Shown here in pieces: positions 2,886-63,534 of a stretch of DNA of 64,000 nt. Below the pieces are notes generated by a model. The model saw only the letters and a program-made list of their open reading frames with translations, searched no databases and was not told the DNA's origin. Both the position numbers and the translations under genes were made by a program. Source of the DNA: an uncultured Desulfobacterales bacterium (GTDB lineage: Bacteria > Desulfobacterota > DSM-4660 > Desulfatiglandales > HGW-15); assembly GCA_964443135.1 (NCBI GenBank), contig CAYUBQ010000017.1, forward strand, positions 726-64,725. The letters run 5' to 3'. Within the stretch, counting starts at the first letter, position 1. Each line of letters opens with the position of its first letter.

Positions 2886-4103
2886 ATGAGAAGAAGCATC
2901 CTCATCGCAGCTCTCGCCCTCTTCCTGGGGCTCACCTGGTCGGGCTGTGTGACGCCGGGCGGGGAACCGGCGGCATCCGTGTCGGCCGTGAGCTCCGAGG
3001 GAGGGATCGCCGGGGAGTTTCTCTCCCGGGCGCGCGACCTGGAGAACCGGGGATTTCCGGTGCGCGCCCTGCGCCGGTACCGGATCGCTCTTACCGTCGA
3101 CCCGGAGAACCCGGAGGCCCTCGAGGCGGCCGGCCGGCTGGAGTCCCGCCTGGACGCGCGGGCCGACGAGCACTGCCGGGTCGGCCTGGCGTTTCACAAG
3201 GAGGGAAAGTACGCGCAGGCCCGGCACGAGTTCCTCACGGCGCTCCGGCTCGACCCGGATCACCCGACAGCCGCCGGGATGCTCGTCTCGCGGGAGCGGG
3301 TGCGGAGCACGCGTTACATCGTTCATCGGGTGGTTCCCGGGGAAAGCCTGTCCGCCCTGGCACAGCGCTACTACGGGGACTACCGCATGTTTCCGGAGAT
3401 CGCACGGTACAACCAGTTGAGGGATGCGACCCGGTTGACGGTGGGGCAGGAGCTCCGGATCCCGGAGATCGAAGGGGCCCCGTTTCTCACGGGCGAGGTC
3501 CCGGTGGAGACCGAGGAGAAGGCCCCGCCCGAGTACGGTCTCTGGGAGTGGGGAGCGTACGAGGCCGCGGCCGGCCGTGAGGCGGACGAGGTCGCCGGGG
3601 AGGCGGAGGAATCGGCCCGCATCACGTCCTGCCTGGCGCACGGGATCGCCCTGTTCGATCGCAGGAAGTACCGGCAGGCCGTCGTGGAGCTCGAACGGGT
3701 CCTCCATGCGAGGCCGGGCGACGAGACCGCCCGGGACTATGCGTCCAAGGCCCACTTCCGGCTGGCCGAGGATCTGTTCGAGAAACAACAGTTCCTCGCT
3801 GCACGCGAAGGATTCATGGAAGCGCTGCGCATCCGGGGGGACTGTGCCGAGTGCCACCGGTATGCCGAGAAGAGCGAGGATCTCTACAAGGAGTCCCACT
3901 ACCGCAGGGGCATGCAGTACTACAACCAGGAAAGGCTCAGAGAGGCCATGGGGGAGTGGGAGCGTGTCCGGGCCCTCGACCCGGGCTACAAGCGGGTGGA
4001 TTACCTCATTGAAAGGTCGAGGAAAATCCTTTCGAACCTCGAGGCCTTGAAAAGACACCAGGGAAAAAGCCCTGAGGAGGACGGCGGAAGCCGTCCCGAT
4101 TGA
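2886..4103 (+). CDS. TPR-repeat / LysM-domain lipoprotein
   Basis: Signal peptide plus lipobox LTWSGC. LysM-like YIVHRVVPGESLSALAQRYYGDYRMFPEIARYNQLRDATRLTVGQELRIP. TPR-like helical repeats. The stop codon TGA (4101-4103) lies inside repeat copy A. Confidence 0.8.
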   Translation: MRRSILIAALALFLGLTWSGCVTPGGEPAASVSAVSSEGGIAGEFLSRARDLENRGFPVRALRRYRIALTVDPENPEALEAAGRLESRLDARADEHCRVGLAFHKEGKYAQARHEFLTALRLDPDHPTAAGMLVSRERVRSTRYIVHRVVPGESLSALAQRYYGDYRMFPEIARYNQLRDATRLTVGQELRIPEIEGAPFLTGEVPVETEEKAPPEYGLWEWGAYEAAAGREADEVAGEAEESARITSCLAHGIALFDRRKYRQAVVELERVLHARPGDETARDYASKAHFRLAEDLFEKQQFLAAREGFMEALRIRGDCAECHRYAEKSEDLYKESHYRRGMQYYNQERLREAMGEWERVRALDPGYKRVDYLIERSRKILSNLEALKRHQGKSPEEDGGSRPD

Positions 4104-4201
4104 CGCATTCGCAGAAACCGCTCACGCGCCGCTGGAAGCGCTGGTACCCGTTGAAAACCCACGGGCAGATCTCGAGGCTTCGGGTTTTTTGCGACGTCAT
4201 C
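4098..4201 (+). repeat. Structured interspersed element, copy A (full length)
   Basis: GATTGACGCATTCGCAGAAACCGCTCACGCGCCGCTGG..GGGCAGATCTCGAGGCTTCGGGTTTTTTGCGACGTCATC. Imperfect terminal inverted repeat. Flanked by CCCGAT at 4095-4100 and 4201-4206. Confidence 0.85.
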
Positions 4202-4206
4202 CCGAT

Positions 4207-4887
4207 TCAGCGGCCTCGCAGCAGGACGTACACCGCCCCCGCTCCCCCGTCGTAGGGTCGGGCGGTGGCGAAGGCCAGGACGATCTTGCGCACGGAGCCG
4301 CTGCTGAACCAGACGGGAAGCTGCTCCTTCAGCACCGGAAAGCTCGAAGGCGAGTTCAGCCCCCGACCGTGGATGACGAGCACGCATCGCAGGCCGAGCC
4401 GGTGGCTTTCCCGAAGGAACTCCCGCACCCGGAGCCGGGCCTCGCTCTTCGTGAGCCCGTGAAGATCCACGTGGTCCTGGATCGGAAACCTCCCCTGCTT
4501 CAAGCGCCTCATCACCTTTCTTCCGACGCCCTTCACCGAGCCCTCCATGTACTCGTCCGTGAAGCTGATGTCCATCTCCACGGACCCGTGGACCAGCCGG
4601 CTGAGGTGCTCCAGGACCTCGCGGTCCTCGTCCGGGGCCGGGTGCGCCGGCCGGGGCGAGGCGGACGGGGATCTCGGTTTCCTCTTCCGCCCTCCGCGGA
4701 GGGGTTTCACGTCGGCCACGGCCTCGAGGAACGTTCTCGTCTGCTCCGAGACCGGGTCCGATTCCGGCGTCGATTCCGGCGCATCTCCGGCCGGGGCCGG
4801 TGACGGTTCTTCCGGGGGCGGTTCGACCTTCAGGTCCCGTCCCTCGAGCACGGGATTGAACACGTTCCTGCCTCTGGACTTTTTCAT
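4207..4887 (-). CDS. Smr (MutS2 C-terminal-like) domain protein
   Basis: C-terminal Smr signature VDLHGLTKSEA..CVLVIHGRGLNS. Start chosen at MKKSRGRN (4887); the longer ORF to 5028 would overlap the divergent gene's start. Confidence 0.75.
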   Translation of the reverse strand: MKKSRGRNVFNPVLEGRDLKVEPPPEEPSPAPAGDAPESTPESDPVSEQTRTFLEAVADVKPLRGGRKRKPRSPSASPRPAHPAPDEDREVLEHLSRLVHGSVEMDISFTDEYMEGSVKGVGRKVMRRLKQGRFPIQDHVDLHGLTKSEARLRVREFLRESHRLGLRCVLVIHGRGLNSPSSFPVLKEQLPVWFSSGSVRKIVLAFATARPYDGGAGAVYVLLRGR

Positions 4888-5026
4888 GAGCTCCCCCGGC
4901 CGGCGGTTCGGGTCCGATTGCACGGCCGGTGTCCGCCTTCCCTTGATTCGACCCTGTATTTCCATTATAACAGTCCCATTTCCGTGTGTGAACCCGGAGA
5001 ACCCCCAACAGAAGCGAGGAATCATC

Positions 5027-5674
5027 ATGGCGCGAGAGGACGACTACCGGAACGCCGCGGCCATCGCAAGGTCCGACCTGGCTGAAAAGGACCCGGTCCT
5101 CCTGGCGGAGCGGTGCGGGGCCGAGATCGTGGAGGAAGGGAGCGGGGCGAGGCTCGAGCTGGGGTTTCTGGGAAGACGAGTCCAGGCGGCCTGGCCCGGT
5201 GTGGTTCTTTCCCGCCCGGATTCGGACGAGGAGGTCCCGATCCAGCAGCAGGTGCTGATCCTACACTATCTCCAGGGAGCCTGGAGGTCGAGCGGGCCCC
5301 CGGTCGCCGGGGACTGGGTGGCCTTTCAGGACGTCCCTGACGGGAAGTTCTACCAGGATGCCTTCCAGAGACGGGCCAAGCTTCCACTCCTGAAGGCGTT
5401 CGGGGAGCGTCCGGAGCTCCTGGCCGACCTGGCCCGGACCGCTTACGGCGCCGAGCGGATCGATCTGGGGGACGTGGCGGTCGCCGTGGAGGCCCTGCCC
5501 AGGATTCGCGTGGCCCTGGTGGTCTGGGCCGGGGACGAGGAGTTCCCTCCGGACGGCAACATCCTGTTCGACCGCAACATCGCTTCCTACTTCTCCGCCG
5601 AGGACATCGCCTGGCTCGCCGGAATGATCGTCTACCCCCTGATGGGGATGGCGGCGGCCTCCGCAAAGGAATGA
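5027..5674 (+). CDS. DUF3786-like protein
   Basis: ATG at 5027 within ORF 4547..5674. The sequence MAREDDYRNAAAIARSDL..FQDVPDGKFYQDAFQRR..WAGDEEFPPDGNILFD resembles the DUF3786 family as I recall it. Confidence 0.6.
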   Translation: MAREDDYRNAAAIARSDLAEKDPVLLAERCGAEIVEEGSGARLELGFLGRRVQAAWPGVVLSRPDSDEEVPIQQQVLILHYLQGAWRSSGPPVAGDWVAFQDVPDGKFYQDAFQRRAKLPLLKAFGERPELLADLARTAYGAERIDLGDVAVAVEALPRIRVALVVWAGDEEFPPDGNILFDRNIASYFSAEDIAWLAGMIVYPLMGMAAASAKE

Positions 5675-6929: not shown

Positions 6930-7193
6930 GCGTCACCTCCGTCAATCAGAGCCCCCTCCACTCCCTGAACGGCTCTTCGAGCAGGCCGAAGCGCAGCATG
7001 CCCTGAAATCCGGGAATCTGATCGGAGAGGCCCGCATCAGGTTTGCGACAAGCGCGGCGGGGTGCAAAACCCCGCCCTGCGAAAACACCGGTTTTCATCA
7101 GCGGGGGGGTGACCGGACGCCGGTCATGGACGTTTGGAGATTGATTCCTGTGGTGAAAAGAGGTAATGAGGGCTTGGTTCGGAAAACAGAGGA

Positions 7194-7297
7194 GATGGAG
7201 TCGAAAAAGCCACAAGCCTCGAGATCTGCCCCGGAACCGTCCGAGGGCGACACCGTTTCCAGCGGCGGGTGAGCGGGTCTTTGCGAATCCGTCAGAG
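7194..7297 (-). repeat. Structured interspersed element, copy B (full length)
   Basis: Minus-strand reading CTCTGACGGATTCGCAAAGACCCGCTCACCCGCCGCTGGAAACGG..GGGGCAGATCTCGAGGCTTGTGGCTTTTTCGACTCCATC. Flanked by GAGGAG at 7189-7194 and 7295-7300. Confidence 0.85.
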
Positions 7298-7551: not shown

Positions 7552-7709
7552 GGCCTGTCCCTGACCATCGGTTCGGAATGTGAGGAGTGACCCGCTCGAG
7601 CCTCCCCTTCCGCCGATTTCGTCCCCCCGGAGGGGGGACCGGCCGCATTCCCCTGCACCGCCCGCTTTCCGGCGTCCGGTAGGCTGCTGTTCGGCCGGCC
7701 GGGGCCGTC

Positions 7710-8235: not shown

Positions 8236-8255
8236 GACGCGAACCCCCCAAACTT

Positions 8256-8360
8256 GACGGCGTCGCAAAAAGCCCGAATCCTCCAGATCTGCCCCTGGGA
8301 TCTCAACGGGTGATATCGTCCCCAGCGGCGGATGAGCGGGCTTTTGCGAACCCGTCGATC
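8256..8360 (-). repeat. Structured interspersed element, copy C (full length)
   Basis: Minus-strand reading GATCGACGGGTTCGCAAAAGCCCGCTCATCCGCCGCTGGGGACGATATCACCCGTTGAGATCCCAGGGGCAGATCTGGAGGATTCGGGCTTTTTGCGACGCCGTC. Confidence 0.85.
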
Positions 8361-14514: not shown

Positions 14515-16149
14515 ATGCCTGACAGCCCCCGGGAAATCAAGGCCACCGTGGAGACCCTCCGGAAGCTGTTCATCATGCCGGACTCGCCGGACAAGTTCGT
14601 CGAGTTCGGGAACGAGCTCCTGGAGATGATCCACGACTTCTTCCGCGAGAAGGGGGGAATCCACAGCAGCGTCTCCCTGCCCGAGCTGAGCCGGATCTTC
14701 AGCCGGACCGCCGTTCCCGGCCACCCCATGCTCATCAAGGACGTCCTGGCGGAGATCAAGGACGAGGTCATCGCCCACTCCGTGAAGGTGGGGAACCCCT
14801 ACTACATCGGCCACATGATCAGTCCCGTGCCCTACTTCATGATCCTGCTCGAGATGATCATCGCCGCCCTCAACCAGAACCAGGTGAAGATCGAGACCGC
14901 CAAGGCCTCCAGCTTCGTGGAGCGGGAGCTCGTCACCTGGTTTCACCGGCTCGTGTTCGGCCGCACCGACCGCTTCTACGAGAAGAACGTGCAGAACCCC
15001 CGGGTGAGCCTGGGAAACGTGACCTCCGACGGGACCCTGGCCAACTTCACCGCCCTGGCCGTGGCCCGGGAAAAGGCCTTTCCGGCCGAGGGCGGCTTCG
15101 GCGGGGTCCGAAAGGAGGGCATGGCGCGGGCCCTCGCGCACCACCGGTGCCGCCGCGGCGTGATCCTGGTGTCGGCCCGCGGGCACTACTCCATCGCCAA
15201 GGCGGCCAACCTGCTGGGCCTGGGATCGGACAACGTGCTGAGCGTGCCCGTGGACCCGGACAACCGCATGGACCCGGCCAAGCTGAGACGCCGGGTGCGA
15301 TCCCTGGGAACGGACGAGCGGGTCGTCGCCGTCGTGGGGGTGGCCGGCACCACGGAGACCGGGAACATCGACGACCTGGAGGCGGTGGCGGAGATCGGGC
15401 GGGAGGCCGGAGCTCACGTGCACGTGGACGCCTGCTGGGGAGGAAGCGTGCTGCTCGTGGACGACTACCGGCCCCTCTTCCGGGGCGTCGAGCGGGCCGA
15501 CTCCGTGTCCATCGACGCCCACAAGCTCCTCTACTGCCCCATGGCCATGGGCATGGTCCTGTTCCGGAGCGAGCGGGACCTGAACCTCCTGAAGCACACC
15601 TCCAACTACATCATCCGCCGGAACTCCGTGGACACGGGGCGGTTCACGATCGAGGGCTCCCGCCCCTTCTCGGCGCTCAAGCCCTGGGCCTCCCTGAAGA
15701 TCCTCGGACGGCAGGGGTACCGGCTCCTGTTCGAGAGCGCCCGCAGGAACACGGAGACCCTCCGGGACCTCCTGGAGCGGGACGGAAACTTCGAGGTCAC
15801 CAACCGTCCGGAGCTCTTCATCCTGAACTACCGGTTCGTGCCCGGGACGGTGCAGGCGTTCCTGCCCGGGGCGGAGGCCGACACCCGGAAGGTCAACCGC
15901 CTGGTGAACGCCCTCAACGTCAAGCTCCACAAGGCGCTTCGAAGGGACGACACCACGTTCGTCTCCCGCACCACGCTGGAGTCCACGCGGTACCGGCCCC
16001 AGCGGATCGTGGTCCTGCGGGCCGTTCTCTCCAACCCCTTGACCGACCGGGGCGTGCTCGAGGAGATCGTCAGGACCCAGGCCCGGATCGGGCTCGAGAT
16101 CTGGCGGGAGTTCGAGCCCGCCTTCCGCAGAACTGTAATGGCGTCGTAA
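14515..16149 (+). CDS. Group II PLP-dependent decarboxylase
   Basis: 544 aa. PLP-lysine motif SIDAHKLLYCPMAMGMVLF and GNVTSDGTLANFTAL. The stop codon TAA (16147-16149) lies inside repeat copy D. Confidence 0.85.
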   Translation: MPDSPREIKATVETLRKLFIMPDSPDKFVEFGNELLEMIHDFFREKGGIHSSVSLPELSRIFSRTAVPGHPMLIKDVLAEIKDEVIAHSVKVGNPYYIGHMISPVPYFMILLEMIIAALNQNQVKIETAKASSFVERELVTWFHRLVFGRTDRFYEKNVQNPRVSLGNVTSDGTLANFTALAVAREKAFPAEGGFGGVRKEGMARALAHHRCRRGVILVSARGHYSIAKAANLLGLGSDNVLSVPVDPDNRMDPAKLRRRVRSLGTDERVVAVVGVAGTTETGNIDDLEAVAEIGREAGAHVHVDACWGGSVLLVDDYRPLFRGVERADSVSIDAHKLLYCPMAMGMVLFRSERDLNLLKHTSNYIIRRNSVDTGRFTIEGSRPFSALKPWASLKILGRQGYRLLFESARRNTETLRDLLERDGNFEVTNRPELFILNYRFVPGTVQAFLPGAEADTRKVNRLVNALNVKLHKALRRDDTTFVSRTTLESTRYRPQRIVVLRAVLSNPLTDRGVLEEIVRTQARIGLEIWREFEPAFRRTVMAS

Positions 16150-16240
16150 AAAGCCCCGAGCCTCGGGATCCGCCCCTGGGATTTCAACAGGTGATACCGC
16201 TGCCGGCGGCGCGTGAGCGGGTTCTGCGAATGCGTCAACC
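16137..16240 (-). repeat. Structured interspersed element, copy D (full length)
   Basis: Minus-strand reading GGTTGACGCATTCGCAGAACCCGCTCACGCGCCGCCGGCAGCGGTATCACCTGTTGAAATCCCAGGGGCGGATCCCGAGGCTCGGGGCTTTTTACGACGCCATT. Sits between convergent genes. Confidence 0.85.
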
Positions 16241-17010: not shown

Positions 17011-17163
17011 CAACGAGCTCCTGAAGAGGGTTGTGCATCTCCGGTCACCTTCGCAGGCATCATAGGTCAAACGGGACGCCCCTTCAAGTCGTGTGCATGC
17101 CCCTCTTCTTCTCAACGCTTCCGGGATTCACCGTCGCTCTGGTCGTCCTGCCGCTCCCCGGGC

Positions 17164-17211
17164 GATTGCGCTGCCGGTGGCGCGTGAGCGGCTTCTTTCG
17201 AATGCCTCAAA
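17164..17211 (-). repeat. Structured interspersed element, 5'-arm fragment (copy H)
   Basis: Minus-strand reading TTTTGAGGCATTCGAAAGAAGCCGCTCACGCGCCACCGGCAGCGCAATC matches the first ~48 nt of copy D and then diverges. Confidence 0.6.
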
Positions 17212-17253: not shown

Positions 17254-18537
17254 GTGAATAGTGACAACTTGAAATACGTCCTTCGCCAGTTCGCCGAGCG
17301 AAGCCTCCCCCCATGCCGTCCCCGGACTCTGGTGCTGCCCGTTGATACGGGCAAGGTGATCGGCCTGGCCGGGGTTCGGCGTTCGGGGAAGACCTTTCTC
17401 TTTTTCGATACCATCCGGCGACTGGAAGAGCAGGGCGTGGACCGACGCTCTGTGGTGTACCTCAATTTCGAGGACGACAGACTGCACCCGCTTCGCTCCG
17501 AGGAGCTGGACCTGATCCTTCGTTGTCTCGAGGAGCTGTTTCCAGAGGTGATGGGCCGGCGTGTCTACCTGTTTCTCGACGAGGTGCAGAATGTGCCGGG
17601 CTGGGAGCGCTGGGTTCGGCGGATCCACGACACCGAGGATGCCGCCGTTTTTGTGACCGGTTCTTCTTCGAAGATGCTCTTTCGGGACTTGGCCACGGCA
17701 CTTCGGGGGCGGAGCATCACCTTCGAGGTGTTTCCCCTCAGCTTCCGCGAGTCCCTGGACTTTCGAGGCATCGAAACCGTGCCATACAGTGCGGAGAACG
17801 AAAGCCTGCTGCGCCGGGCCCTGGAGGAGTACCTCGCATGGGGAGGGTTTCCCGAGATCGTGCTGGCCGAGGAGACCCTGCGCCCGCACATCCTCACGGA
17901 ATATGCCTCTCTCATGTTCTACCGGGACGTGGTGGAGCGGTATGGAGTGCGCAATGAGCCACTCATGCGCGGGCTCCTCAGGCATGCCTTCCGCAACACC
18001 GCCACCCTGATCAATGTGAGCAAGCTCCACCGTGATTTTCGTTCTCAGGGGTTCAGCATCTCCAAAAACACGCTGTTCGAGTACCTCGGGTACCTGGAGG
18101 ATGCCTTTCTCGTTTTTCCCATTCCCCGGCTCGCACAGTCACTGCGCAAGCAGGCCCACAACCCGAAGAAGCTGCATGTCATCGACCCGGGCTTGGTGTC
18201 CGCATTCAAGGCGCGCACGGGGCCGGATTCCGGACGGCGGCTCGAAACGGCCGTGTTCCTGGAGATGCGCCGTGCTCACAAGGAGCTTTTCTATCATGCC
18301 GATGGAGGCGAGATTGACCTCTGCGACGGGGAAGGCACGGTGTTCGTCAATGTCTGCTGGAGCCTGGCCGAACTCGAGACCCGGCAGAGAGAGGCCAGGC
18401 AGATGGCCCTGGGACGAAGCCTGTGGCCCCAGGCCGATGGACGCCTGGTGTTTCACGAATATGCCCCCGAGCCCCCGGATCACGGCATCCCGGGCGCCCA
18501 GCCGGCATGGCGGTTCCTGACCACTGACCCCCTTTGA
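17254..18537 (+). CDS. COG1373-type AAA ATPase with DUF4143-like C-terminal domain (paralog 1)
   Basis: GTG start. Walker A GVRRSGKT, Walker B LFLDEVQ. In the C-terminal region the EID..VNVC segment aligns with the EVD..EIK of paralog 2. Confidence 0.8.
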   Translation: MNSDNLKYVLRQFAERSLPPCRPRTLVLPVDTGKVIGLAGVRRSGKTFLFFDTIRRLEEQGVDRRSVVYLNFEDDRLHPLRSEELDLILRCLEELFPEVMGRRVYLFLDEVQNVPGWERWVRRIHDTEDAAVFVTGSSSKMLFRDLATALRGRSITFEVFPLSFRESLDFRGIETVPYSAENESLLRRALEEYLAWGGFPEIVLAEETLRPHILTEYASLMFYRDVVERYGVRNEPLMRGLLRHAFRNTATLINVSKLHRDFRSQGFSISKNTLFEYLGYLEDAFLVFPIPRLAQSLRKQAHNPKKLHVIDPGLVSAFKARTGPDSGRRLETAVFLEMRRAHKELFYHADGGEIDLCDGEGTVFVNVCWSLAELETRQREARQMALGRSLWPQADGRLVFHEYAPEPPDHGIPGAQPAWRFLTTDPL

Positions 18538-25624: not shown

Positions 25625-25666
25625 AAATGGTTATCGACTGAGAGATGGGGGACGCCCTTCAAATTT

Positions 25667-25722
25667 GATGGAGTCGTAAATAGCCTGAATCCTGTGAGCG
25701 GGTTTTTGCGAATGCGTCAATG
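25667..25722 (-). repeat. Structured interspersed element, 56-nt internally deleted mini copy
   Basis: Minus-strand reading CATTGACGCATTCGCAAAAACCCGCTCAC|AGGATTCAGGCTATTTACGACTCCATC. Both arms are retained and the central ~48 nt are absent. Confidence 0.7.
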
Positions 25723-28712: not shown

Positions 28713-29762
28713 ATGATGGCGGAGATCGATTTTGGAGGCGTGAAGGAGAACGTGGTCACGGCCGACGAGGTTTCCCTGGACAAGGCCCGGGAACTGCTCG
28801 GGGACGAGACCGTGGCGGTGCTGGGATACGGCGTGCAGGGCCCGGGCCAGGCGTTGAACATGCGGGACAACGGCATCCGGGTGATCGTGGGCCAGCGGGA
28901 GGGGGGCGAGTCGTGGGAGAAGGCCGTCCGGGACGGGTTCGTTCCGGGCGAGACCCTGTTCCCCATCGAGGAGGCCGCCCGGCGGGGGACCATCCTCCAG
29001 TTTCTCGTGTCCGACGCCGGGCAGGTGGCCTCCTGGCCGGAGGTGAAGGCCGGGCTGGCCCCGGGCGATGCGCTCTACTTCAGCCACGGGTTCGCCATCA
29101 CCTACCGGGACCAGACCGGGGTGATCCCCCCGGACGACGTGGACGTGATCCTGGTGGCGCCCAAGGGGTCGGGCCGGACGGTGCGGACCAACTTTCTGGA
29201 CGGAAGCGGCATCAACGCCAGCTACGCGGTGTTTCAGGACGCCACGGGCCGCGCCGAGGAGCGCACCCTGGCCACGGGGATCGCCATCGGATCGGGATAC
29301 CTGTTTCCCACCACCTTCGAGAAGGAGGTGTTCAGCGACCTGGTGGGGGAGCGCGGGGTGCTCATGGGGGCCCTGGCCGGCGTGATGGAGGCCCAGTACG
29401 ACCTGCTCAGGAGAAATGGGCACAGCCCGAGCGAGGCGTTCAACGAGACCGTGGAGGAGCTCACCCAGAGCCTCATCCGCCTGGTGGCCGAGAACGGCAT
29501 GGACTGGATGTACGCCAACTGCAGCACCACGGCCCAGCGGGGGGCCCTGGACTGGCGGCACCGGTTCCGTGAGGCGGTGGCGCCGGTCTTCGAGGAGCTT
29601 TACGACAGCGTGGCCTCGGGCAAGGAGACCCGCATCGTGCTCGAGGCGAACAGCGCCCCGGACTACCGGCAGCGGCTTCGCAGGGAGCTGGACGAGATCC
29701 ACGACTCGGAGATGTGGCGGGCCGGCGCGGCCGTGCGAAAGCTCCGTCCCGAGAACCGTTGA
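28713..29762 (+). CDS. ilvC: Ketol-acid reductoisomerase
   Basis: ATG at 28713 after AAAGGAGAG. GYGVQGPGQALNMRDNG, SHGFAI, LVAPKGSG, FEKEVFSDLVGERGVLMG. Confidence 0.95.
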   Translation: MMAEIDFGGVKENVVTADEVSLDKARELLGDETVAVLGYGVQGPGQALNMRDNGIRVIVGQREGGESWEKAVRDGFVPGETLFPIEEAARRGTILQFLVSDAGQVASWPEVKAGLAPGDALYFSHGFAITYRDQTGVIPPDDVDVILVAPKGSGRTVRTNFLDGSGINASYAVFQDATGRAEERTLATGIAIGSGYLFPTTFEKEVFSDLVGERGVLMGALAGVMEAQYDLLRRNGHSPSEAFNETVEELTQSLIRLVAENGMDWMYANCSTTAQRGALDWRHRFREAVAPVFEELYDSVASGKETRIVLEANSAPDYRQRLRRELDEIHDSEMWRAGAAVRKLRPENR

Positions 29763-29787
29763 AGCCCTTGTCAGACCGGGATGTTCA

Positions 29788-29892
29788 AGTTGACGCATTC
29801 GAAAAAACCCGCTCACGCGCCGCTGGGGACGATACAATCTGTTGGAATCTCAGGGGCAGATCTCGAGGCTTGGGGCTTTTGGGGACGCTATC
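29788..29892 (+). repeat. Structured interspersed element, copy E (full length)
   Basis: AGTTGACGCATTCGAAAAAACCCGCTCACGCGCCGCTGGGGACGATACAATCTGTTGGAATCTCAGGGGCAGATCTCGAGGCTTGGGGCTTTTGGGGACGCTATC. Confidence 0.85.
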
Positions 29893-29955
29893 AAAATATG
29901 ATTTGACAAAATGACCTGGTCTGGTCAGACTAAATGGATCAAGGAGGGTTGTTTT

Positions 29956-30201
29956 ATGCAAATCACCAATATTTCAGAGGCAAAGGCCCAGTTGTCCGCA
30001 CTCGTTGAACGGGTTCGGGCCGGGGAGGATATCATCATCGGAAAGGCCGGCCGGCCTGTCGCCCGGCTCGTCAAATACGAAAACAGCCGTCAGGCACGGC
30101 GGCCTGGGGCGCTGAAGGGCAGGATAAGGCTTTCAGATGATTTTGACGAGCTGCCCGAAGATCTGGCAGAAGCGTTCGGCATGGAGATGGAGAAAGAGTG
30201 A
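29956..30201 (+). CDS. Phd/YefM-family antitoxin
   Basis: MQITNISEAKAQLSALVERVRAGEDIIIGKAGRPVARLV. AAGGAGGG RBS. 4-nt overlap with the toxin gene. Confidence 0.85.
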   Translation: MQITNISEAKAQLSALVERVRAGEDIIIGKAGRPVARLVKYENSRQARRPGALKGRIRLSDDFDELPEDLAEAFGMEMEKE

Positions 30202-30575
30202 ATCTCTTCATTGACACCCACGTGCTGTTATGGTGGCTTGATGACAGCCCGAAGCTCTCCGAAGCCGGGCGAACCGCCATTTCAGATCCAGGCAATCTGA
30301 TCGTCTTGAGTGCCGTCGTGGTTTGGGAGATCCGGATCAAGCAGGCCCTGGGGAAGCTGGAAATCCCTCCGAGTTTTTACCGGGTGGTACAAGAACAGGG
30401 ATTTGAACTGTTATCGATAACGGGGGATCACGCATACGCTGTGGGTGACCTTCCCATGCACCACCGGGACCCCTTTGACAGAATGATCATTGCCCAGGCC
30501 AAACTCGAAGGCCTTACGGTGGCGACCCGCGACACTGTCTTCAACCAATACGACATCCCGGTTCTCAGGGTCTGA
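30198..30575 (+). CDS. vapC: PIN-domain toxin
   Basis: LFIDTHVLLWW, LSAVVVWEIRIK, HRDPFDRMIIAQA. Confidence 0.85.
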   Translation: MNLFIDTHVLLWWLDDSPKLSEAGRTAISDPGNLIVLSAVVVWEIRIKQALGKLEIPPSFYRVVQEQGFELLSITGDHAYAVGDLPMHHRDPFDRMIIAQAKLEGLTVATRDTVFNQYDIPVLRV

Positions 30576-30576
30576 C

Positions 30577-30594
30577 AACCCGCTCACGCGCCGC
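30577..30594 (+). repeat. 18-nt fragment of the structured element (copy I)
   Basis: AACCCGCTCACGCGCCGC is identical to 29806-29823 of copy E. It starts 2 nt after the vapC stop codon. Confidence 0.5.
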
Positions 30595-30618
30595 CATCAG
30601 GCTCCGTCCCGAGAACCG

Positions 30619-32268
30619 CTAGTAGTCCGTCCCGCCCCTGGCGATGGGATACCGCCTCCCGTACCCGAAGGCCTTGCTGGTCACCTTGAGGCCGGGCGGC
30701 GCCTGGCGGCGCTTGTACTCGTTGAGGTTCAGGCGCCGAAAGACGTCCGCCACCACGGCCGGGTCGAACCCCCGGGAGGCGATCTCCTCCTGGGACAGGT
30801 TCTTCTCCAGCGCGTCCTCCAGGATCCGGTCCAGCACGTCGTAGGGGGGGAGCGTGTCCTGGTCGGTCTGGTCGGGGCGGAGCTCCGCGGAGGGCGGCCT
30901 GGTGATGATGCGCTCGGGGATGATCGGCCCGCTTTCGTTGATCCGGTGTGCGATCCGGTAGCAGAGGGTCTTGGGCACGTCGGAGATCACCGCCAGCCCC
31001 CCGCTCATGTCGCCGTACAGGGTGCAGTATCCCATGGCCAGCTCGGACTTGTTCCCCGTGGAGAGCAGCAGGGCGCCCAGCTTGTTGGAGACGGCCATGA
31101 GGAGGGTTCCTCGAACCCGCGCCTGGATGTTCTCCTCGGTCGCGTCCTCCTCCATGTCCCGAAAGAGCGGGGCCAGCACCTCCTTGAAGCGCTCGAACAG
31201 GTCCTGGATGGGGATCTCCTCGAAGCGGATGCCGAGGTTCCCGGCCAGCCGCCGGGCGTCCTCCCGGCTCATGGCCGACGTGTACTCCGAGGGCATGGAG
31301 ATCCCGATCACGTTCTCGGGGCCCAGGGCGCGGGCCGCGATGACCGCCGCCAGGGTGCTGTCGAGCCCCCCGCTCAGCCCCACCAGGGCCTGTCTGAACC
31401 CGCACTTGCGCGTGTAGTCCCGGGTGCCCATGACCAGGCCTTTCAAGACGGACGCGGTCCGGTCCAGCCAGGGCTCGGCTACGGGCGGAGCGTCCTCCTC
31501 CGTGTCCCAGTAGAGGACGGCTTCTTCGAACTCGGGGGCGGCCTGCACCAGGCGGCCCTTCCGGTCCACGGCCATGCTGGAGCCGTCGAAGAGAAGGTCA
31601 TCGTTCCCGCCCGCCTGGTTGCAGTAGGCGATCGCGACGCGGTAGCGGGTGGAGAGCCGCTCCAGGATGCCGGCCCGGAGAGCGGGCTTTCCCATGGTGT
31701 AGGGAGAGGCGGAGATGTTCACCAGGAGGTCCATCCCCCGGGAGGCCAGATCCTCCACGGGATGGAGGTCGTAGAGGGGGAGCGGGACGCCCGCGATGTC
31801 CCCGACGTTCCAGATGTCCTCGCAGACGGTGACGGCCACCCTGAGCCCCTGGAGCTCGAAACGGAGGCTTCGGGGGGCGGGCTCGAAGTAGCGCGCCTCG
31901 TCGAAGACGTCGTAGGTCGGCAGGAGACGTTTCCCTCCGCTCTTCAGCACCCGGCCCTCCCCGAGGAGCGCGGCTCCGTTGATCAGCCGGTTCCGGCTGC
32001 GGCCCGGCTCCACGAACCCGCAGAGCACGTGGATGCCCCGCACCTCCCGTGCGAACCGTTCCAGGGCGTCTCGACTCTCCCGGACAAAGGCGGGTTTCTC
32101 GAGGAGGTCCCTGGGCGGGTAGCCGATCAGGCTCAGCTCGGGGAACACCGCGAGGGCGCATCCCTGCGCCCTGGCCTCCTCGAGCCGGCTGCGCAGCATG
32201 GCCGTGTTGTGCTCGAAGTGGCCGATGATCGGGTTGGTCTGGCAGAGGGCGATCTTCATGGGTCTCAC
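30619..32268 (-). CDS. nadE: Glutamine-dependent NAD+ synthetase
   Basis: N-terminal CN-hydrolase domain (IALCQTNP..FPELSLIGYPP) plus the NAD synthetase domain (GLSGGLDSTL, SELAMGYCTLYGD). Confidence 0.95.
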   Translation of the reverse strand: MRPMKIALCQTNPIIGHFEHNTAMLRSRLEEARAQGCALAVFPELSLIGYPPRDLLEKPAFVRESRDALERFAREVRGIHVLCGFVEPGRSRNRLINGAALLGEGRVLKSGGKRLLPTYDVFDEARYFEPAPRSLRFELQGLRVAVTVCEDIWNVGDIAGVPLPLYDLHPVEDLASRGMDLLVNISASPYTMGKPALRAGILERLSTRYRVAIAYCNQAGGNDDLLFDGSSMAVDRKGRLVQAAPEFEEAVLYWDTEEDAPPVAEPWLDRTASVLKGLVMGTRDYTRKCGFRQALVGLSGGLDSTLAAVIAARALGPENVIGISMPSEYTSAMSREDARRLAGNLGIRFEEIPIQDLFERFKEVLAPLFRDMEEDATEENIQARVRGTLLMAVSNKLGALLLSTGNKSELAMGYCTLYGDMSGGLAVISDVPKTLCYRIAHRINESGPIIPERIITRPPSAELRPDQTDQDTLPPYDVLDRILEDALEKNLSQEEIASRGFDPAVVADVFRRLNLNEYKRRQAPPGLKVTSKAFGYGRRYPIARGGTDY

Positions 32269-33516: not shown

Positions 33517-33590
33517 ATCCGGCTCCTCGTTTCGATGGGGTTCGACCGCCCCGGCCTCGCCGGGGTCGGCTGCATACGGCCTTGAAACCT

Positions 33591-33695
33591 GATGGGGTCG
33601 CAAAACGCCCTTGGCCTCGAGATCTGCCCTCGGAATATCGATAGATGATACCGTTTCCAGCGGCGGGTGAGCGGGTTTTTGCGAATCCGCCAAAC
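33591..33695 (-). repeat. Structured interspersed element, copy F (full length)
   Basis: Minus-strand reading GTTTGGCGGATTCGCAAAAACCCGCTCACCCGCCGCTGGAAACGGTATCATCTATCGATATTCCGAGGGCAGATCTCGAGGCCAAGGGCGTTTTGCGACCCCATC. Flanks are AACCTG and AACCTA. Confidence 0.85.
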
Positions 33696-34473: not shown

Positions 34474-34565
34474 GATTTGACGGTTTCGCAGGAACCCGCC
34501 CACCCGCCCCCATGCCCGTCGAAACCCAGGCTCGACTTGTGGCCGGATCGCCGGAGATTCCCATC
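34474..34565 (+). repeat. Structured interspersed element, degenerate copy G
   Basis: GATTTGACGGTTTCGCAGGAACCCGCCCACCCGCC matches ~30 of 35 nt of the 5' arm. The later segments GTCGAAACCCAGG, CTCGACTTGTGGC and TCCCATC are recognisable. Confidence 0.5.
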
Positions 34566-60555: not shown

Positions 60556-60915
60556 CTATGGAAGCGTCCAGGAGAGTCCCATGACCCAGCCGACACTCTC
60601 CACGATCTCCCGGGTCCTCCGGGGGGAGAGGGTGCCGATTTTCTCGAGCAGGCGGTTCTTGTCGATGACCATGACATGGGTTCCCCTTGCCAGACTGGGC
60701 CTGGGGAGGTTCGCTTCCCCTTTCTCGAGCAGGACGTTTCCGGGAAGCGCGGCATGATGGGTGCTTTTCGTCAGAGGAACCACCAGGACCGTGCGAAAGC
60801 GGCTTCGGTTGATGGCATTCCTCTGCACGACCACCATGGGTCGATTGTAGGCCGGCTCTGAGCCGGTATTTGCAGCAAGGCTTCCACAGAAGACGTCCCC
60901 CTGCTGGATCACCAT
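60556..60915 (-). CDS. mazF: MazF/PemK-family endoribonuclease toxin
   Basis: MVIQQGDVF..NRPMVVVQRNAINRSRFRTVLVVPLT..LPGNVLL..VMVIDKNRL. Confidence 0.85.
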   Translation of the reverse strand: MVIQQGDVFCGSLAANTGSEPAYNRPMVVVQRNAINRSRFRTVLVVPLTKSTHHAALPGNVLLEKGEANLPRPSLARGTHVMVIDKNRLLEKIGTLSPRRTREIVESVGWVMGLSWTLP

Positions 60916-61163
60916 GACTCCTCCGGCTCGCCCGCGATGCCCAGCATCTCCTCGGCCAGGTCCTGGTCGTAGGCCGCGGTGCCTGGATCCGAACACACCT
61001 CATTGAATTGTCGGGTGATTTCCTCTTCCTCGAGCCTCTCGATCTGTTGCGCCACGGCCTGGACGACAAAGCGGCTCCTGGAGATGCCCTGCTTTTTGGC
61101 CCATGCATCCAGCTTCTCGAGGCATGGAGGGGGGATGGTGATCGCAATTCGCTGTGCTGACAT
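60909..61163 (-). CDS. Ribbon-helix-helix (CopG-like) antitoxin
   Basis: RIAITIPPPCLEKLDAWAKKQGISRSRFVVQAV. Overlaps mazF by 7 nt. Confidence 0.8.
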   Translation of the reverse strand: MSAQRIAITIPPPCLEKLDAWAKKQGISRSRFVVQAVAQQIERLEEEEITRQFNEVCSDPGTAAYDQDLAEEMLGIAGEPEESW

Positions 61164-61290
61164 GAGACGCTCCTATGTCCATGATCAGTATGATCAATCG
61201 TAATCGGGTAGAATCTCCAAGTCAAGCAGGGGATCCTGATCGCAGGTTGGGGTTGACATCGCTCCAATTTTACCGTACAAATTTGGAGTC

Positions 61291-62487
61291 ATGTTCTCGA
61301 GGCAGATCCAGCCTGTTGCGACGAAGAGCTTTTTCCTGTTCGGCCCTCGGCAGACCGGGAAGAGCACCTATGTTCGTTCGTTGTTGTCCTCCGAGGACCT
61401 GTACATCGATCTGTTGCCCCAGCGGAGCTACCTGGACTATGTCCGAAATCCCGGTAGCGTGCGGGAAGAGATTCTGGCCCATCTGGATCGGCATCCCGGG
61501 GCGATGTGTGTCATTGACGAGATCCAAAAGATCCCCGCGCTTTTGGACGAGGTACACGAGCTGATCGAGTCGCGGGGGGCCAGGTTCATTCTCACCGGGT
61601 CCAGCGCCAGGAAGCTTCGCAGGGGCGCTGCCAACCTTCTGGCGGGGAGGGCCTATACCTATCGCCTCTTTCCCCTGACCTTGCTGGAGCTGGGAGAGCG
61701 TTTCGATCTGGACCGGGCCCTCCGGGTCGGGACCCTTCCCGTGTTGTGGGGGGATGACCGCGAGGACCCTGCCGAGTTCCTGCGATCGTATGCCGAGACC
61801 TACCTGAAGGAAGAGGTGGCGGCCGAGGGCCTGGTACGGGATATCGGCCCTTTTGCGCAGTTCCTCGACATGGCTGCCGCCAATGACGGGGAGACCGTCA
61901 ACTTCAGCAACATGGCCCGAGAGTGCTCGGTGTCCAGCAAGACGGTGCAGCAGTACTATCAGATCCTTGAGGACACCTTTCTGGCCGTGAAGCTCTCGGC
62001 ATGGAGGCGCAGTGCCCGAAGGCGTCTCGTTTCCAACCCCCGGTACTACCTCTTTGACCCCGGCGTGACCAATGCCCTTGCCCACACCCTGACAGACCGG
62101 ATGGGGGGAAGCCTTCTCGGCCGGCGCTTCGAGCAGTTCGTCATCGGCCAGCTGACGGCCGCCATCCATTACCAGCGGCTGGACTACACCCTGCACTACT
62201 GGCGCACGAACCACGGCGCGGAGGTGGATGTCCTGCTCTGCGCCGGGAACCGCATCGTCTGCGCGCTCGAAATCAAGGCCTCCCGGCGAATCGCCTCGGA
62301 GTCCCTGACGGGGCTCAAGAGCTTTCTGGAGGACAACCCTGAGGTTGCCGCCTATGTTCTCGGGATCCAGCAGAAAAGGCGTAAGCTGGCCAACGGTGTC
62401 ACCGTGATGGACTGGAAGGACTTCATTGCGGAGCATTTGGAATCCGAGGGAGGTGGTCTTCAGACTCGGAGTTCACGAAGGACCTGA
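61291..62487 (+). CDS. COG1373-type AAA ATPase with DUF4143-like C-terminal domain (paralog 2)
   Basis: Walker A GPRQTGKS, Walker B CVIDEIQ. C-terminus HYWRTNHGAEVDVLL..ALEIKAS (D..ExK-like). Promoter TTGACA-N17-TACAAA at ~61254. Confidence 0.85.
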   Translation: MFSRQIQPVATKSFFLFGPRQTGKSTYVRSLLSSEDLYIDLLPQRSYLDYVRNPGSVREEILAHLDRHPGAMCVIDEIQKIPALLDEVHELIESRGARFILTGSSARKLRRGAANLLAGRAYTYRLFPLTLLELGERFDLDRALRVGTLPVLWGDDREDPAEFLRSYAETYLKEEVAAEGLVRDIGPFAQFLDMAAANDGETVNFSNMARECSVSSKTVQQYYQILEDTFLAVKLSAWRRSARRRLVSNPRYYLFDPGVTNALAHTLTDRMGGSLLGRRFEQFVIGQLTAAIHYQRLDYTLHYWRTNHGAEVDVLLCAGNRIVCALEIKASRRIASESLTGLKSFLEDNPEVAAYVLGIQQKRRKLANGVTVMDWKDFIAEHLESEGGGLQTRSSRRT

Positions 62488-62580
62488 TCAATGGACTCGA
62501 CGAATGCATCGACCTCATATTGGAGCTCTGGCATCTGATTGGCGAGGCGGGAGCAGGACGTTTCCGGGAAGCGCGGCATG

Positions 62581-62615
62581 CGGCGCATGAGCGGGTTTTT
62601 GCGAATGCGTCAATC
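62581..62615 (-). repeat. Structured interspersed element, 5'-arm fragment (copy J)
   Basis: Minus-strand reading GATTGACGCATTCGCAAAAACCCGCTCATGCGCCG, joined directly to a 30-nt mazF-derived segment. Confidence 0.65.
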
Positions 62616-62690
62616 GTCTGGCTCGGAAGGCGTTTCCGTGTGGGAGGGGAATGTGGTATATTCTTTCACGTCGTGATCAGGAGGGCGATC

Positions 62691-63113
62691 TTGCTGTCTG
62701 AGGAGCAAAAAAGGAAGGCATCGAGGTTTCTTGAGGGCTTCGACGCCATTGCTTCGGCCTACCTTTTTGGGTCCACAAGCGTGGGATGCGCTCGAAGCGG
62801 CAGCGACATCGATATTGCCGTCCGTGTTCGGAACGGGGTTCCTTCGGAAGAGCGGTTCGAGATCAGGATGGCGTTGCTTTCCGACCTGGAGCCGCTGTTC
62901 GATGCCCCTGTGGACGTTCTGGTGATGAACGATGCCTCCCTGGCCATCCTCCACCAGGTCCTTTCCTACGGCGTTCCCCTTTTCATCCGAGACCCCGAGG
63001 AAGAGGAACAGTTCCGGGTGAATCGGCTCAAGGCGTTTTTCGATTTCCGTTACTACCTCGACAGGGATTTTGACGAAACGGAACGGTTCTTCAGGAAGGC
63101 GAGTCATGGTTGA
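62691..63113 (+). CDS. Minimal nucleotidyltransferase (MNT) antitoxin
   Basis: TTG start after AGGAGGG. AYLFGSTSVGCARSGSDIDIAV motif (GS..DxD). Confidence 0.8.
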   Translation: MLSEEQKRKASRFLEGFDAIASAYLFGSTSVGCARSGSDIDIAVRVRNGVPSEERFEIRMALLSDLEPLFDAPVDVLVMNDASLAILHQVLSYGVPLFIRDPEEEEQFRVNRLKAFFDFRYYLDRDFDETERFFRKASHG

Positions 63114-63534
63114 TGCGGATGTGATCCAATCCAAGCTGCGGTTCCTGCGCGAGTACCTCCAGGATCTGGACGAGTACCGGCAGATCACGACGGCGGATTA
63201 TATCAGACAGAAAAAGGATCAGCGTTTCATCGAGCGGACCCTCCATCTGGCCTGCGAGTGCTGCATCGACATCGCGGCACACGTGATATCCAGAAAAAAC
63301 CTTCGGCCCCCCAAGGACAACAAAGACCTTTTCCTCATTCTCTACGAGAACGGCCTCATTTCAGGATCCATGGAATCCGCAATGCGTAAGATGGTGCAGT
63401 TCAGAAACATCGTGGTTCACGACTATGCCCGCATCGATCCGGAGATCGTCGTAGGAATTCTGCACCACGATGTGGAAGACCTCCGGGGCTTCGCCCGGGA
63501 GATCCTGGATCGTCTCCCCCACATCGCTTCTTGA
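63106..63534 (+). CDS. HEPN/DUF86 toxin
   Basis: Rx4-6H motif FRNIVVHDY. Its ATG overlaps the MNT stop codon. Confidence 0.85.
   Translation: MVDADVIQSKLRFLREYLQDLDEYRQITTADYIRQKKDQRFIERTLHLACECCIDIAAHVISRKNLRPPKDNKDLFLILYENGLISGSMESAMRKMVQFRNIVVHDYARIDPEIVVGILHHDVEDLRGFAREILDRLPHIAS

Follow-up and report, generated by a model that had tools for sequence, protein, structure and literature searches.

Do the two identical copies of a gene's last codons that enclose a small block of lower-G+C DNA mark the attachment sites of a mobile cassette, or did they come about separately from the DNA that lies between them? The question is raised by the ilvC-nadE spacer in a 64-kb stretch of contig CAYUBQ010000017.1 from an uncultured Desulfobacterales bacterium (64,000 nucleotides, the whole of which we call the window). 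In this spacer a phd-vapC toxin-antitoxin (TA) module and a copy of a dispersed repeat, designated E, are flanked by direct repeats of the ilvC terminus, and an earlier note on this DNA compared the arrangement to the attL/attR sites of an integrase-less, trans-mobilised element of about 840 bp. Comparison with related contigs leads us to consider it likely that the spacer is a layered, fast-evolving scar region and not one cassette bounded by attachment sites, and on the same comparison the duplications of the two repeated 18-mers appear to be products of separate events. The locus is a heavily rearranged intergenic spacer, which holds an old TA insertion, copies and debris of a MITE (miniature inverted-repeat transposable element) and a small duplication of a gene terminus.

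The first 18-mer, A (GCTCCGTCCCGAGAACCG), has two exact copies. The left copy (29741-29758, + strand) provides the genuine final codons of ilvC (28716-29762, +; ketol-acid reductoisomerase, Pfam KARI_N and KARI_C), which read ..KLRPENR before the TGA at 29760-62, the native 3' end of the gene. The right copy (30601-30618) still reads LRPENR and runs into a TAG (30620-22) that overlaps by two bases the stop codon of the convergent nadE (CTA on the + strand, 30619-21). Within the window, A has no third site even when up to 2 mismatches are allowed, with 0.01 expected by chance, and its right-hand copy is a copy of the ilvC terminus, as the earlier note had held. The second 18-mer, B (AACCCGCTCACGCGCCGC), is found in exact copies at 29806-29823 and 30577-30594 (both +). 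The sequence facts that the earlier note stated are all correct, among them the lower G+C between the copies, which falls from about 0.68 to 0.49-0.57 over 29800-30500. If up to 2 mismatches are tolerated, B has 8 sites in the window, as part of the dispersed repeat E, so that its duplication here weighs far less than that of A, and the B copies around the TA genes are not specific evidence for a cassette boundary. The order along the locus is A-B...B-A, which a single duplication would not give.

To follow the state of the interval in relatives, we examined ten informative lineages, obtained from NadE and VapC homologues and the contigs encoding them. L001 and L002, about 96-98% identical and each from an independent metagenome assembly, show the same arrangement as the window, including both A copies. 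In the most distant contigs (L094-96 and L086, NadE 76% and 86% identical, respectively) the gene order is nadE, ilvD and then convergent ilvC, with ilvD at about 5116-6858 in L094-L096 and at 3430-5115 in L086, and the ilvC-nadE spacer is thus itself a deletion scar from which ilvD has gone in the window's clade. L083 and L085 (NadE 88-89%) are TA-free: after the ilvC TGA come about 10 nt, a strong hairpin, 45-75 nt and the TGA stop of nadE. The module-free spacers measure 93 nt in L083, 123 nt in L085 and 26 nt in L092, all counted after the ilvC TGA, and the hairpin folds with z = -5.6 in L083 and z = -3.4 in L093. In all relatives ilvC ends in CG(T/C)-TGA like the left A, except in L086 (..RG-TAG). 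In the window the ilvC stop is followed by a remnant of the native downstream sequence (AGCCCTTGTCAGACCGGGATGTTCAAG, 29763-29789, +) that holds the left arm of the ancestral terminator hairpin, the rest of which is lost; this remnant has homologous sequence in L083, L093, L088 and L097, where it lies at an equal distance from the ilvC stop.

The relatives that carry the module separate its components from one another. L097, the nearest outgroup (ilvC 96.1%, nadE 96.7% and TA module 95.8% identical), has an identical left 18-mer, an orthologous E copy and the TA module, and to the right of these a 106-nt spacer of which the final ~50 nt are identical to the module-free spacer of L083 and which ends in ..CACCGCCCTTCAG before TAGTCC; it is without right B and right A, and its nadE TGA stop is intact. 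In L088 (~91%) the ilvC TGA is followed by AGCCCTTGTCCGACCGGGGACG, the TA module, TCTTCCGAA and TCAG-nadE, and E, right B and right A are all missing. L090 (~92%) has an inverted E copy upstream of the module and a direct copy downstream, where the contig ends. L093 (nadE ~90% identical at the DNA level) combines an intact hairpin after the ilvC TGA with ~90 nt, the TA promoter, a decayed module, 45 nt and ..GCGCCGCAATCAG followed by TCTCCGTCCCGAGAACCGCTAG and TAATCC; in the decayed module (4798-5028) a phd of 76 aa is fused via a 16-nt E 3' fragment, CTTTTTACGACGCGAT, to the final 10 nt of vapC. The 98% sister of L093, L092, is TA-free with a TGA stop on nadE, and because its 26-nt spacer matches the TA right flank of L093 the comparison indicates that it lost the module secondarily. 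On this evidence the TA module, with its shared left junction, had entered before these lineages diverged to about 90% identity.

The earlier note had taken everything between the two A copies to be inserted. Relative to the TA-free outgroups L083 and L085, phd/vapC and E are indeed insertions, but they were not inserted as one unit, since L097 has E and the module without the right repeats and L088 has the module without E or repeats. The further proposal that ilvC once ended directly against nadE is contradicted by relatives that keep a spacer of 26-123 bp (with the hairpin in L083, L085 and L093) or ilvD between the two genes; ilvC abuts nadE in none of the about ten lineages sampled, and the uninterrupted junction of LRPENR-stop with nadE that the note suggested looking for was likewise not found among them. 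A search of the GTDB species representatives with IlvC returned a best match of 81% identity and none with nadE nearby, which is uninformative on the junction. Two exact-pattern scans of metagenome contigs, one with the conserved nadE-end pattern and one with the right-hand copy of the ilvC terminus, were both empty and carry no weight; the nadE-end pattern occurs verbatim in the JGI contigs L083 and L097, and the scanned collection evidently lacks this clade.

The repeat E accounts for one of the two duplications. An E profile was built from five full copies, and nhmmer was used to search the window and the relatives. E is a non-coding, intergenic sequence of ~100-104 bp with 6 full and 5 partial copies in 64 kb, about one per 6 kb. 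The full copies lie at 4100-4202(+), 7193-7294(-), 8255-8356(-), 16135-16238(-), 29790-29893(+) and 33590-33693(-), and the profile search places partial copies at 17159-17210(-), 25666-25720(-; internally deleted), 34477-34508(+; the 5' half) and 62570-62613(-). Further copies are present in L090, L092, L093 and L097. The termini of E are GACGCATTCGC ... GCGACGCCATC, and in the consensus fold its 5' end (GCATTCGCAAAAACCCGC) pairs imperfectly with its 3' end (GGGGCTTTTTGCGACGC), with weak support from covariation (compensatory changes in 3 pairs). The copy at 33590-33693 is flanked by a 6-bp target duplication, AGGTTT, and is missing from the orthologous CheD-DegT spacer of L083, L085 and L086, a verified empty site; candidate 6-bp duplications are CCGATT at 4.1 kb and TCCTCT at 7.2 kb. 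E thus behaves as a MITE-like mobile element with a 6-bp target duplication. The window showed no partner insertion sequence (IS) or transposase whose ends match those of E. No Rfam family matches E or the region at gathering or permissive thresholds and, judged by this lack of a match, the E family is probably undescribed. Both AAA_14/DUF4143 ATPase genes of the window (17254-18534 and 61291-62484) adjoin 5'-only truncated E copies (17159-17210 and 62570-62613, respectively), which looks as though these accessory genes had inserted into E copies or removed a part of such copies.

The copy of E that carries the left B (E-left, 29790-29893, +; nhmmer E = 8e-31) sits in an A-rich stretch directly upstream of the TA promoter. 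Its target duplication is degenerate, orthologous copies occur in L001, L002 and L097 only, and it is absent in L088; the comparison places its insertion later than that of the TA module. The two E copies of L090 are independent insertions, and the 5' end of the downstream one starts 3-4 nt past the vapC stop, close to where that contig ends. Because L090 has an E copy starting just after the vapC stop, and deleted E derivatives occur in the window, we read the right B (30577-30594, +) as most likely the stump of a second E copy, which was inserted right behind the vapC stop and of which the 5' tip and the 3' two-thirds were afterwards deleted; on its own, right B matches the E model weakly (nhmmer E = 0.94). 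In L093 the E fragment lies within the decayed module. Upstream of that module, a local alignment (z about 2.9) suggested a decayed E, but nhmmer finds nothing there and we do not claim it.

The phd-vapC module at the centre of the locus is, by its sequence, an ordinary Phd/YefM-VapC type II TA system with nothing unusual about it. A phd/yefM-type antitoxin gene of 81 aa (29956-30201, +; PF02604, 43.5 bits against a cut-off of 29.8) lies upstream of vapC, which encodes a PIN-domain toxin of 125 aa (30198-30575, +; PF01850, 67.1 bits against a cut-off of 23.6). Both domains thus score above curated thresholds, and the genes overlap by 4 nt in the order expected of a type II system. VapC has more than 4000 homologues, and those listed are 123-126 aa long with a conserved C-terminus, KYDIPVLxV; the PIN acidic residues D6, E44, D94 and D112 are invariant in an alignment of 21 homologues. 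The putative promoter/operator region (29894-29955, +) contains TTGACA at 29903-08 and the palindrome TGACCTGGTCTGGTCA at 29912-27. Across five flank contexts the conserved unit begins ~10 nt before TTGACA and ends with the vapC stop, which in the window corresponds to roughly 29894-30576, and near-identical modules in unrelated flanks (L089 and L091) share homology over this promoter-to-vapC-stop unit only. The inverted terminal repeats expected of a mobile insertion cassette or composite transposon were not found at the ends of the TA island, where the match between the L093 left flank and the reverse-complemented L097 right flank scores no better than shuffles (p = 0.70). Among IMG/VR sequences no VapC relatives were found, and 68 IMG/VR matches to a 16-mer of B proved to be chance, with none fitting the E model convincingly.

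Two ideas about the vapC 3' end were discarded. That it might be the right arm of the ancestral hairpin, a split native terminator, is ruled out by the conservation of KYDIPVLxV in homologues from unrelated contexts. That it forms a substitute terminator with the right A is not claimed: an 11-bp stem is present, but its z is only -1.7 to -2.0 and it fails to track loss of the native hairpin (L093). Just past ilvC, positions 29768-29784 (TTGTCAGACCGGGATGT) match the conserved vapC 3' coding end (30553-30578) in inverted orientation, 17/17 with one 9-nt gap; the match is weaker in L088 and L097, and could be due to chance or to microhomology used at the entry of the TA module. The site without a TA module in L083 (~7680-7695) reads ..CCCCGGGTTCTTCACTTCC, the left island junction of L093 (~5165-5180) reads ..CCCCGGGTCCTC followed by GGTAGG and the right island junction of L097 (~4395-4410) reads ..CCCCACGGGCTCT followed by TCACTTCC. 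Relative to L083, an 8-mer resembling GGGTTCTT (~8 bp) is kept at both island junctions, which come from different lineages, and it is possibly a target duplication from the original TA insertion. In the unrelated context of L091 (VapC 89% identical) the module lies between copies of a palindrome resembling repetitive extragenic palindromes (REP-like, GGGGACGTTGTTTGA...TCAAACAACGTCCCC; 33-57, 95-109, 969-999 and 1038-1068), which suggests that phd-vapC modules of this type tend to lie among intergenic hairpin repeats. Elsewhere in the window further TA modules are clustered at 60559-63531: a MazF/PemK toxin (60559-60996, -) with a ribbon-helix-helix (RHH) antitoxin (60912-61163, -), and an MNT-type nucleotidyltransferase (62520-63110, +) with a HepT RNase (63070-63531, +).

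The remaining duplication is that of the ilvC terminus itself. The right 18-mer A plus CTAG makes up a 22-nt insertion (GCTCCGTCCCGAGAACCGCTAG, 30601-30622, +) that, when the junctions are right-aligned, sits between ..TCAG and TA(G/A)TCC at the end of nadE (30619-32259, -; glutamine-dependent NAD+ synthetase of 546 aa, Pfam CN_hydrolase and NAD_synthase). Elsewhere this point is uninterrupted, with ..TCAG directly followed by TA(A/G)TCC in L097, L088, L083, L092 and L086, and ..TCAA by TAGTCC in L085. Immediately to the left of the insertion, CATCAG (30595-30600, +) would be the displaced original nadE stop context, in which the former stop is still visible as TCA at 30597-99 (TGA on the nadE strand), followed by G; an alternative reading takes CATC as the 3' tip of E. 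Through the 22-nt copy nadE gains a new TAG stop, with no change to NadE itself. The window, L001, L002 and L093 (21/22 identical in the last) have the copy, and L097, L088, L092, L083, L085 and L086 lack it. A relic longer than 22 nt was considered and rejected, the similarity to ilvC upstream of the copy in L093 not being significant (p = 0.29).

These observations can be arranged into a history of five steps. The loss of ilvD would have left the ilvC TGA, a GC-rich terminator hairpin, a spacer of 45-75 nt and the nadE TGA stop. A phd-vapC module of lower G+C, with its own promoter, would then have entered just past the hairpin in the ancestor of several lineages that are now ~90% identical, after which the hairpin would have been deleted in some lineages, the window's included. 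E would subsequently have inserted several times around and inside the module, independently in each lineage, and decayed, with E-left and the right B as outcomes. Finally, a 22-nt copy of the ilvC terminus would have been placed at the nadE stop, displacing TGA and creating TAG. Comparison with the relatives shows the first four steps together with the existence and position of the 22-nt insertion; the mechanism of the fifth step and that of the original module entry are what we infer. For the fifth step our preferred mechanism among those considered, though at somewhat less than even odds, is a one-step templated insertion, by template switching or as gap-repair filler: ilvC, a few hundred bases upstream, would have been copied in the same orientation, with AG/CAG microhomology at the entry point.

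Several points weigh against this history. The 22-nt copy is distributed patchily: it occurs in L093, which is 90% related, and is lacking in L097, which is 96% related, as well as in the 98% sister of L093, L092. Simple vertical descent does not explain this pattern, which needs strain-to-strain exchange, repeated precise loss or recurrent origin. The interpretation of right B as an E remnant draws on 18 nt and the analogy with L090, and the end of the ancestral spacer (CTCTCACCGCCCTTCAG) weakly resembles right B, making a conversion-type origin possible. The sampling comprises about ten lineages, all relatives are contigs from metagenomes and, at 89-92% identity, the lineages form a nearly star-like tree, so that the order of events is only partly resolved.

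Exchange between strains is the core of an alternative that we regard as unlikely. A deletion would have fused ilvC to nadE (..AACCGCT joined to AGTAGTCC) with both proteins kept, and E and the TA module would then have been re-installed from a related strain, either through homology-facilitated illegitimate recombination that used ilvC as its anchor and joined illegitimately at ..TCAG/CAG before GCTCC, or through crossovers in ilvC and in an E copy acting as portable homology; by either route the recipient's last 22 nt of ilvC would stay beside nadE. Such a re-capture explains the direct duplication of the gene terminus with CAG microhomology at the joint, as well as the in-frame stop of the copy overlapping the nadE stop, and it fits both the patchy distribution and the state of L090, where the module has an E copy on either side. 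There are also documented cases in which homology-facilitated illegitimate recombination left 3' gene regions orphaned (PMC5361080, PMC3240628). However, the abutting allele, which would read ..GAGAACCGCTAGTA preceded by genuine ilvC, is unseen in the lineages sampled, the shortest spacer being that of L092 with its 26 nt and TGA; at least two rare events are required; and the nadE sequence adjoining the copy has, in the window as in L093, the type of the local lineage, so that an imported tract would have to end exactly at the copy. That the 22-nt copy is the footprint of E and phd/vapC shuttling between strains into an ilvC-nadE-fused lineage, with the gene terminus, MITE copies or both as portable homology, is likewise unlikely; if true, it would mean that MITE-flanked TA modules act as recombination-mobilised cassettes within this species complex. 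Duplication-mediated capture, which the earlier note had offered as its second option, is possible for the 22-nt copy on its own but not for the whole segment.

We find it very improbable that the copy derives from a tandem duplication reaching from the ilvC terminus to the nadE stop (..TCAG joined to GCTCC), the second copy of which was later deleted down to 22 nt. The direct orientation and a joint exactly at the old nadE stop context would follow naturally, and duplication and collapse are common in bacteria, but this reading takes two events, of which the second is a fortuitously neat deletion that recreates an in-frame nadE stop, no intermediate is observed, and the patchy distribution causes the same trouble.

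We give scarcely any credence to the proposal that E and phd/vapC form a trans-mobilised, integrase-less element of ~840 bp in the ilvC 3' end, with A as its attachment (att) core and the right copy as the displaced original terminus. An exact 18-bp direct repeat encloses a low-G+C segment, ilvC is completed by its left copy in the way that genes at tRNA-type integration sites are completed by an element-borne end, and the right copy keeps its reading frame and stop; recombination of A with A would give the empty junction GCGAAAGCTCCGTCCCGAGAACCGCTAGTAG and the circle junction CATCAGGCTCCGTCCCGAGAACCGTTGAAGCCC. The proposal is largely refuted by L097 and L088, in which the module occupies the same site beside an ancestral nadE flank with no right A. 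Module-free sites never show a single core abutting nadE, and the DNA after the left copy (29763-29784) is native, common to module-free relatives, and not element DNA. The unit conserved across contexts starts at the promoter and ends at the vapC stop, placing the repeats off its ends, and in L093 the right copy belongs to a locus of different organisation, with an intact hairpin, no E-left and a decayed module. As to the recombinases that the earlier note proposed to look for, no integrase or transposase Pfam match was obtained among 20 accessory-looking window open reading frames with low G+C at third codon positions (GC3), none lies between the repeats, and no phage link was found. Finally, although repeats can misjoin contigs in metagenome-type assemblies, there is next to no chance that an assembly artefact or chimeric contig, named in the earlier note as a possible refutation, made the repeats, because the independent assemblies L001 and L002 carry the full arrangement with both A copies, as does the window, a third independent assembly, and L093 independently has the 22-nt copy.

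The locus is a caution in that a perfect 18-bp repeat of a gene terminus around low-G+C DNA mimics attL/attR and yet appears to be a by-product of unrelated small events, as comparison of a few related sequences brought out. It also offers, in one spacer, a clean natural series of phd-vapC gain, decay and loss, a dense and apparently undescribed MITE-like family that repeatedly hits and erodes a TA locus, and a 22-nt duplication that rewrites a stop codon with both proteins unchanged. Its novelty is limited to the probably undescribed MITE family and the 22-nt duplication, and the understanding of such systems is unchanged.

Among known systems, integrative elements that target gene 3' ends restore them with an element-borne copy, as at tRNA/tmRNA-type att sites, including trans-mobilised forms of the cis-mobilisable and integrative mobilisable kind (CIME/IME-like). 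The present locus resembles them in having a direct repeat of terminal bases around foreign-looking DNA, with the upstream copy completing the gene, but here the repeat does not bound the presence/absence unit, in that the core is not at both ends of what varies; native DNA follows the left copy, and no single-core empty site was found. Chromosomal integrons carry TA cassettes, and like these the phd-vapC module is a small TA unit that lacks an integrase and recurs in several genomic contexts. It differs in having its own promoter and no attC-like sequence, the homology ending with the vapC stop, and in that neither an integron integrase nor a cassette array lies nearby; an integron gene cassette is ruled out, given that promoter and that no attC travels with the unit across five flank contexts. 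In Rhs and type VI secretion system (T6SS) effector arrays, homology-facilitated illegitimate recombination leaves orphaned 3' gene regions (PMC5361080, PMC3240628), and the 22-nt copy is similar in that a gene terminus, displaced or duplicated, lies downstream of newly placed DNA and shows microhomology at the joint. It differs in the length of the orphan, which is no more than 22 nt, and in that the required recipient allele was not observed and the data are explained just as well by a one-step templated insertion. E differs from the bacterial MITEs and small intergenic repeats reviewed previously (PMC3184786) in its weak terminal inverted repeats, in having no partner IS in the window and in having no Rfam match, and resembles MITEs in its length of ~100 bp, its non-coding nature, its many intergenic copies, the target duplication at an empty site and its truncated and internally deleted derivatives. 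The TA module itself matches chromosomal Phd/YefM-VapC systems, with the antitoxin gene first, a 4-nt overlap, its own promoter with a palindromic operator-like site and a G+C lower than that of its host.

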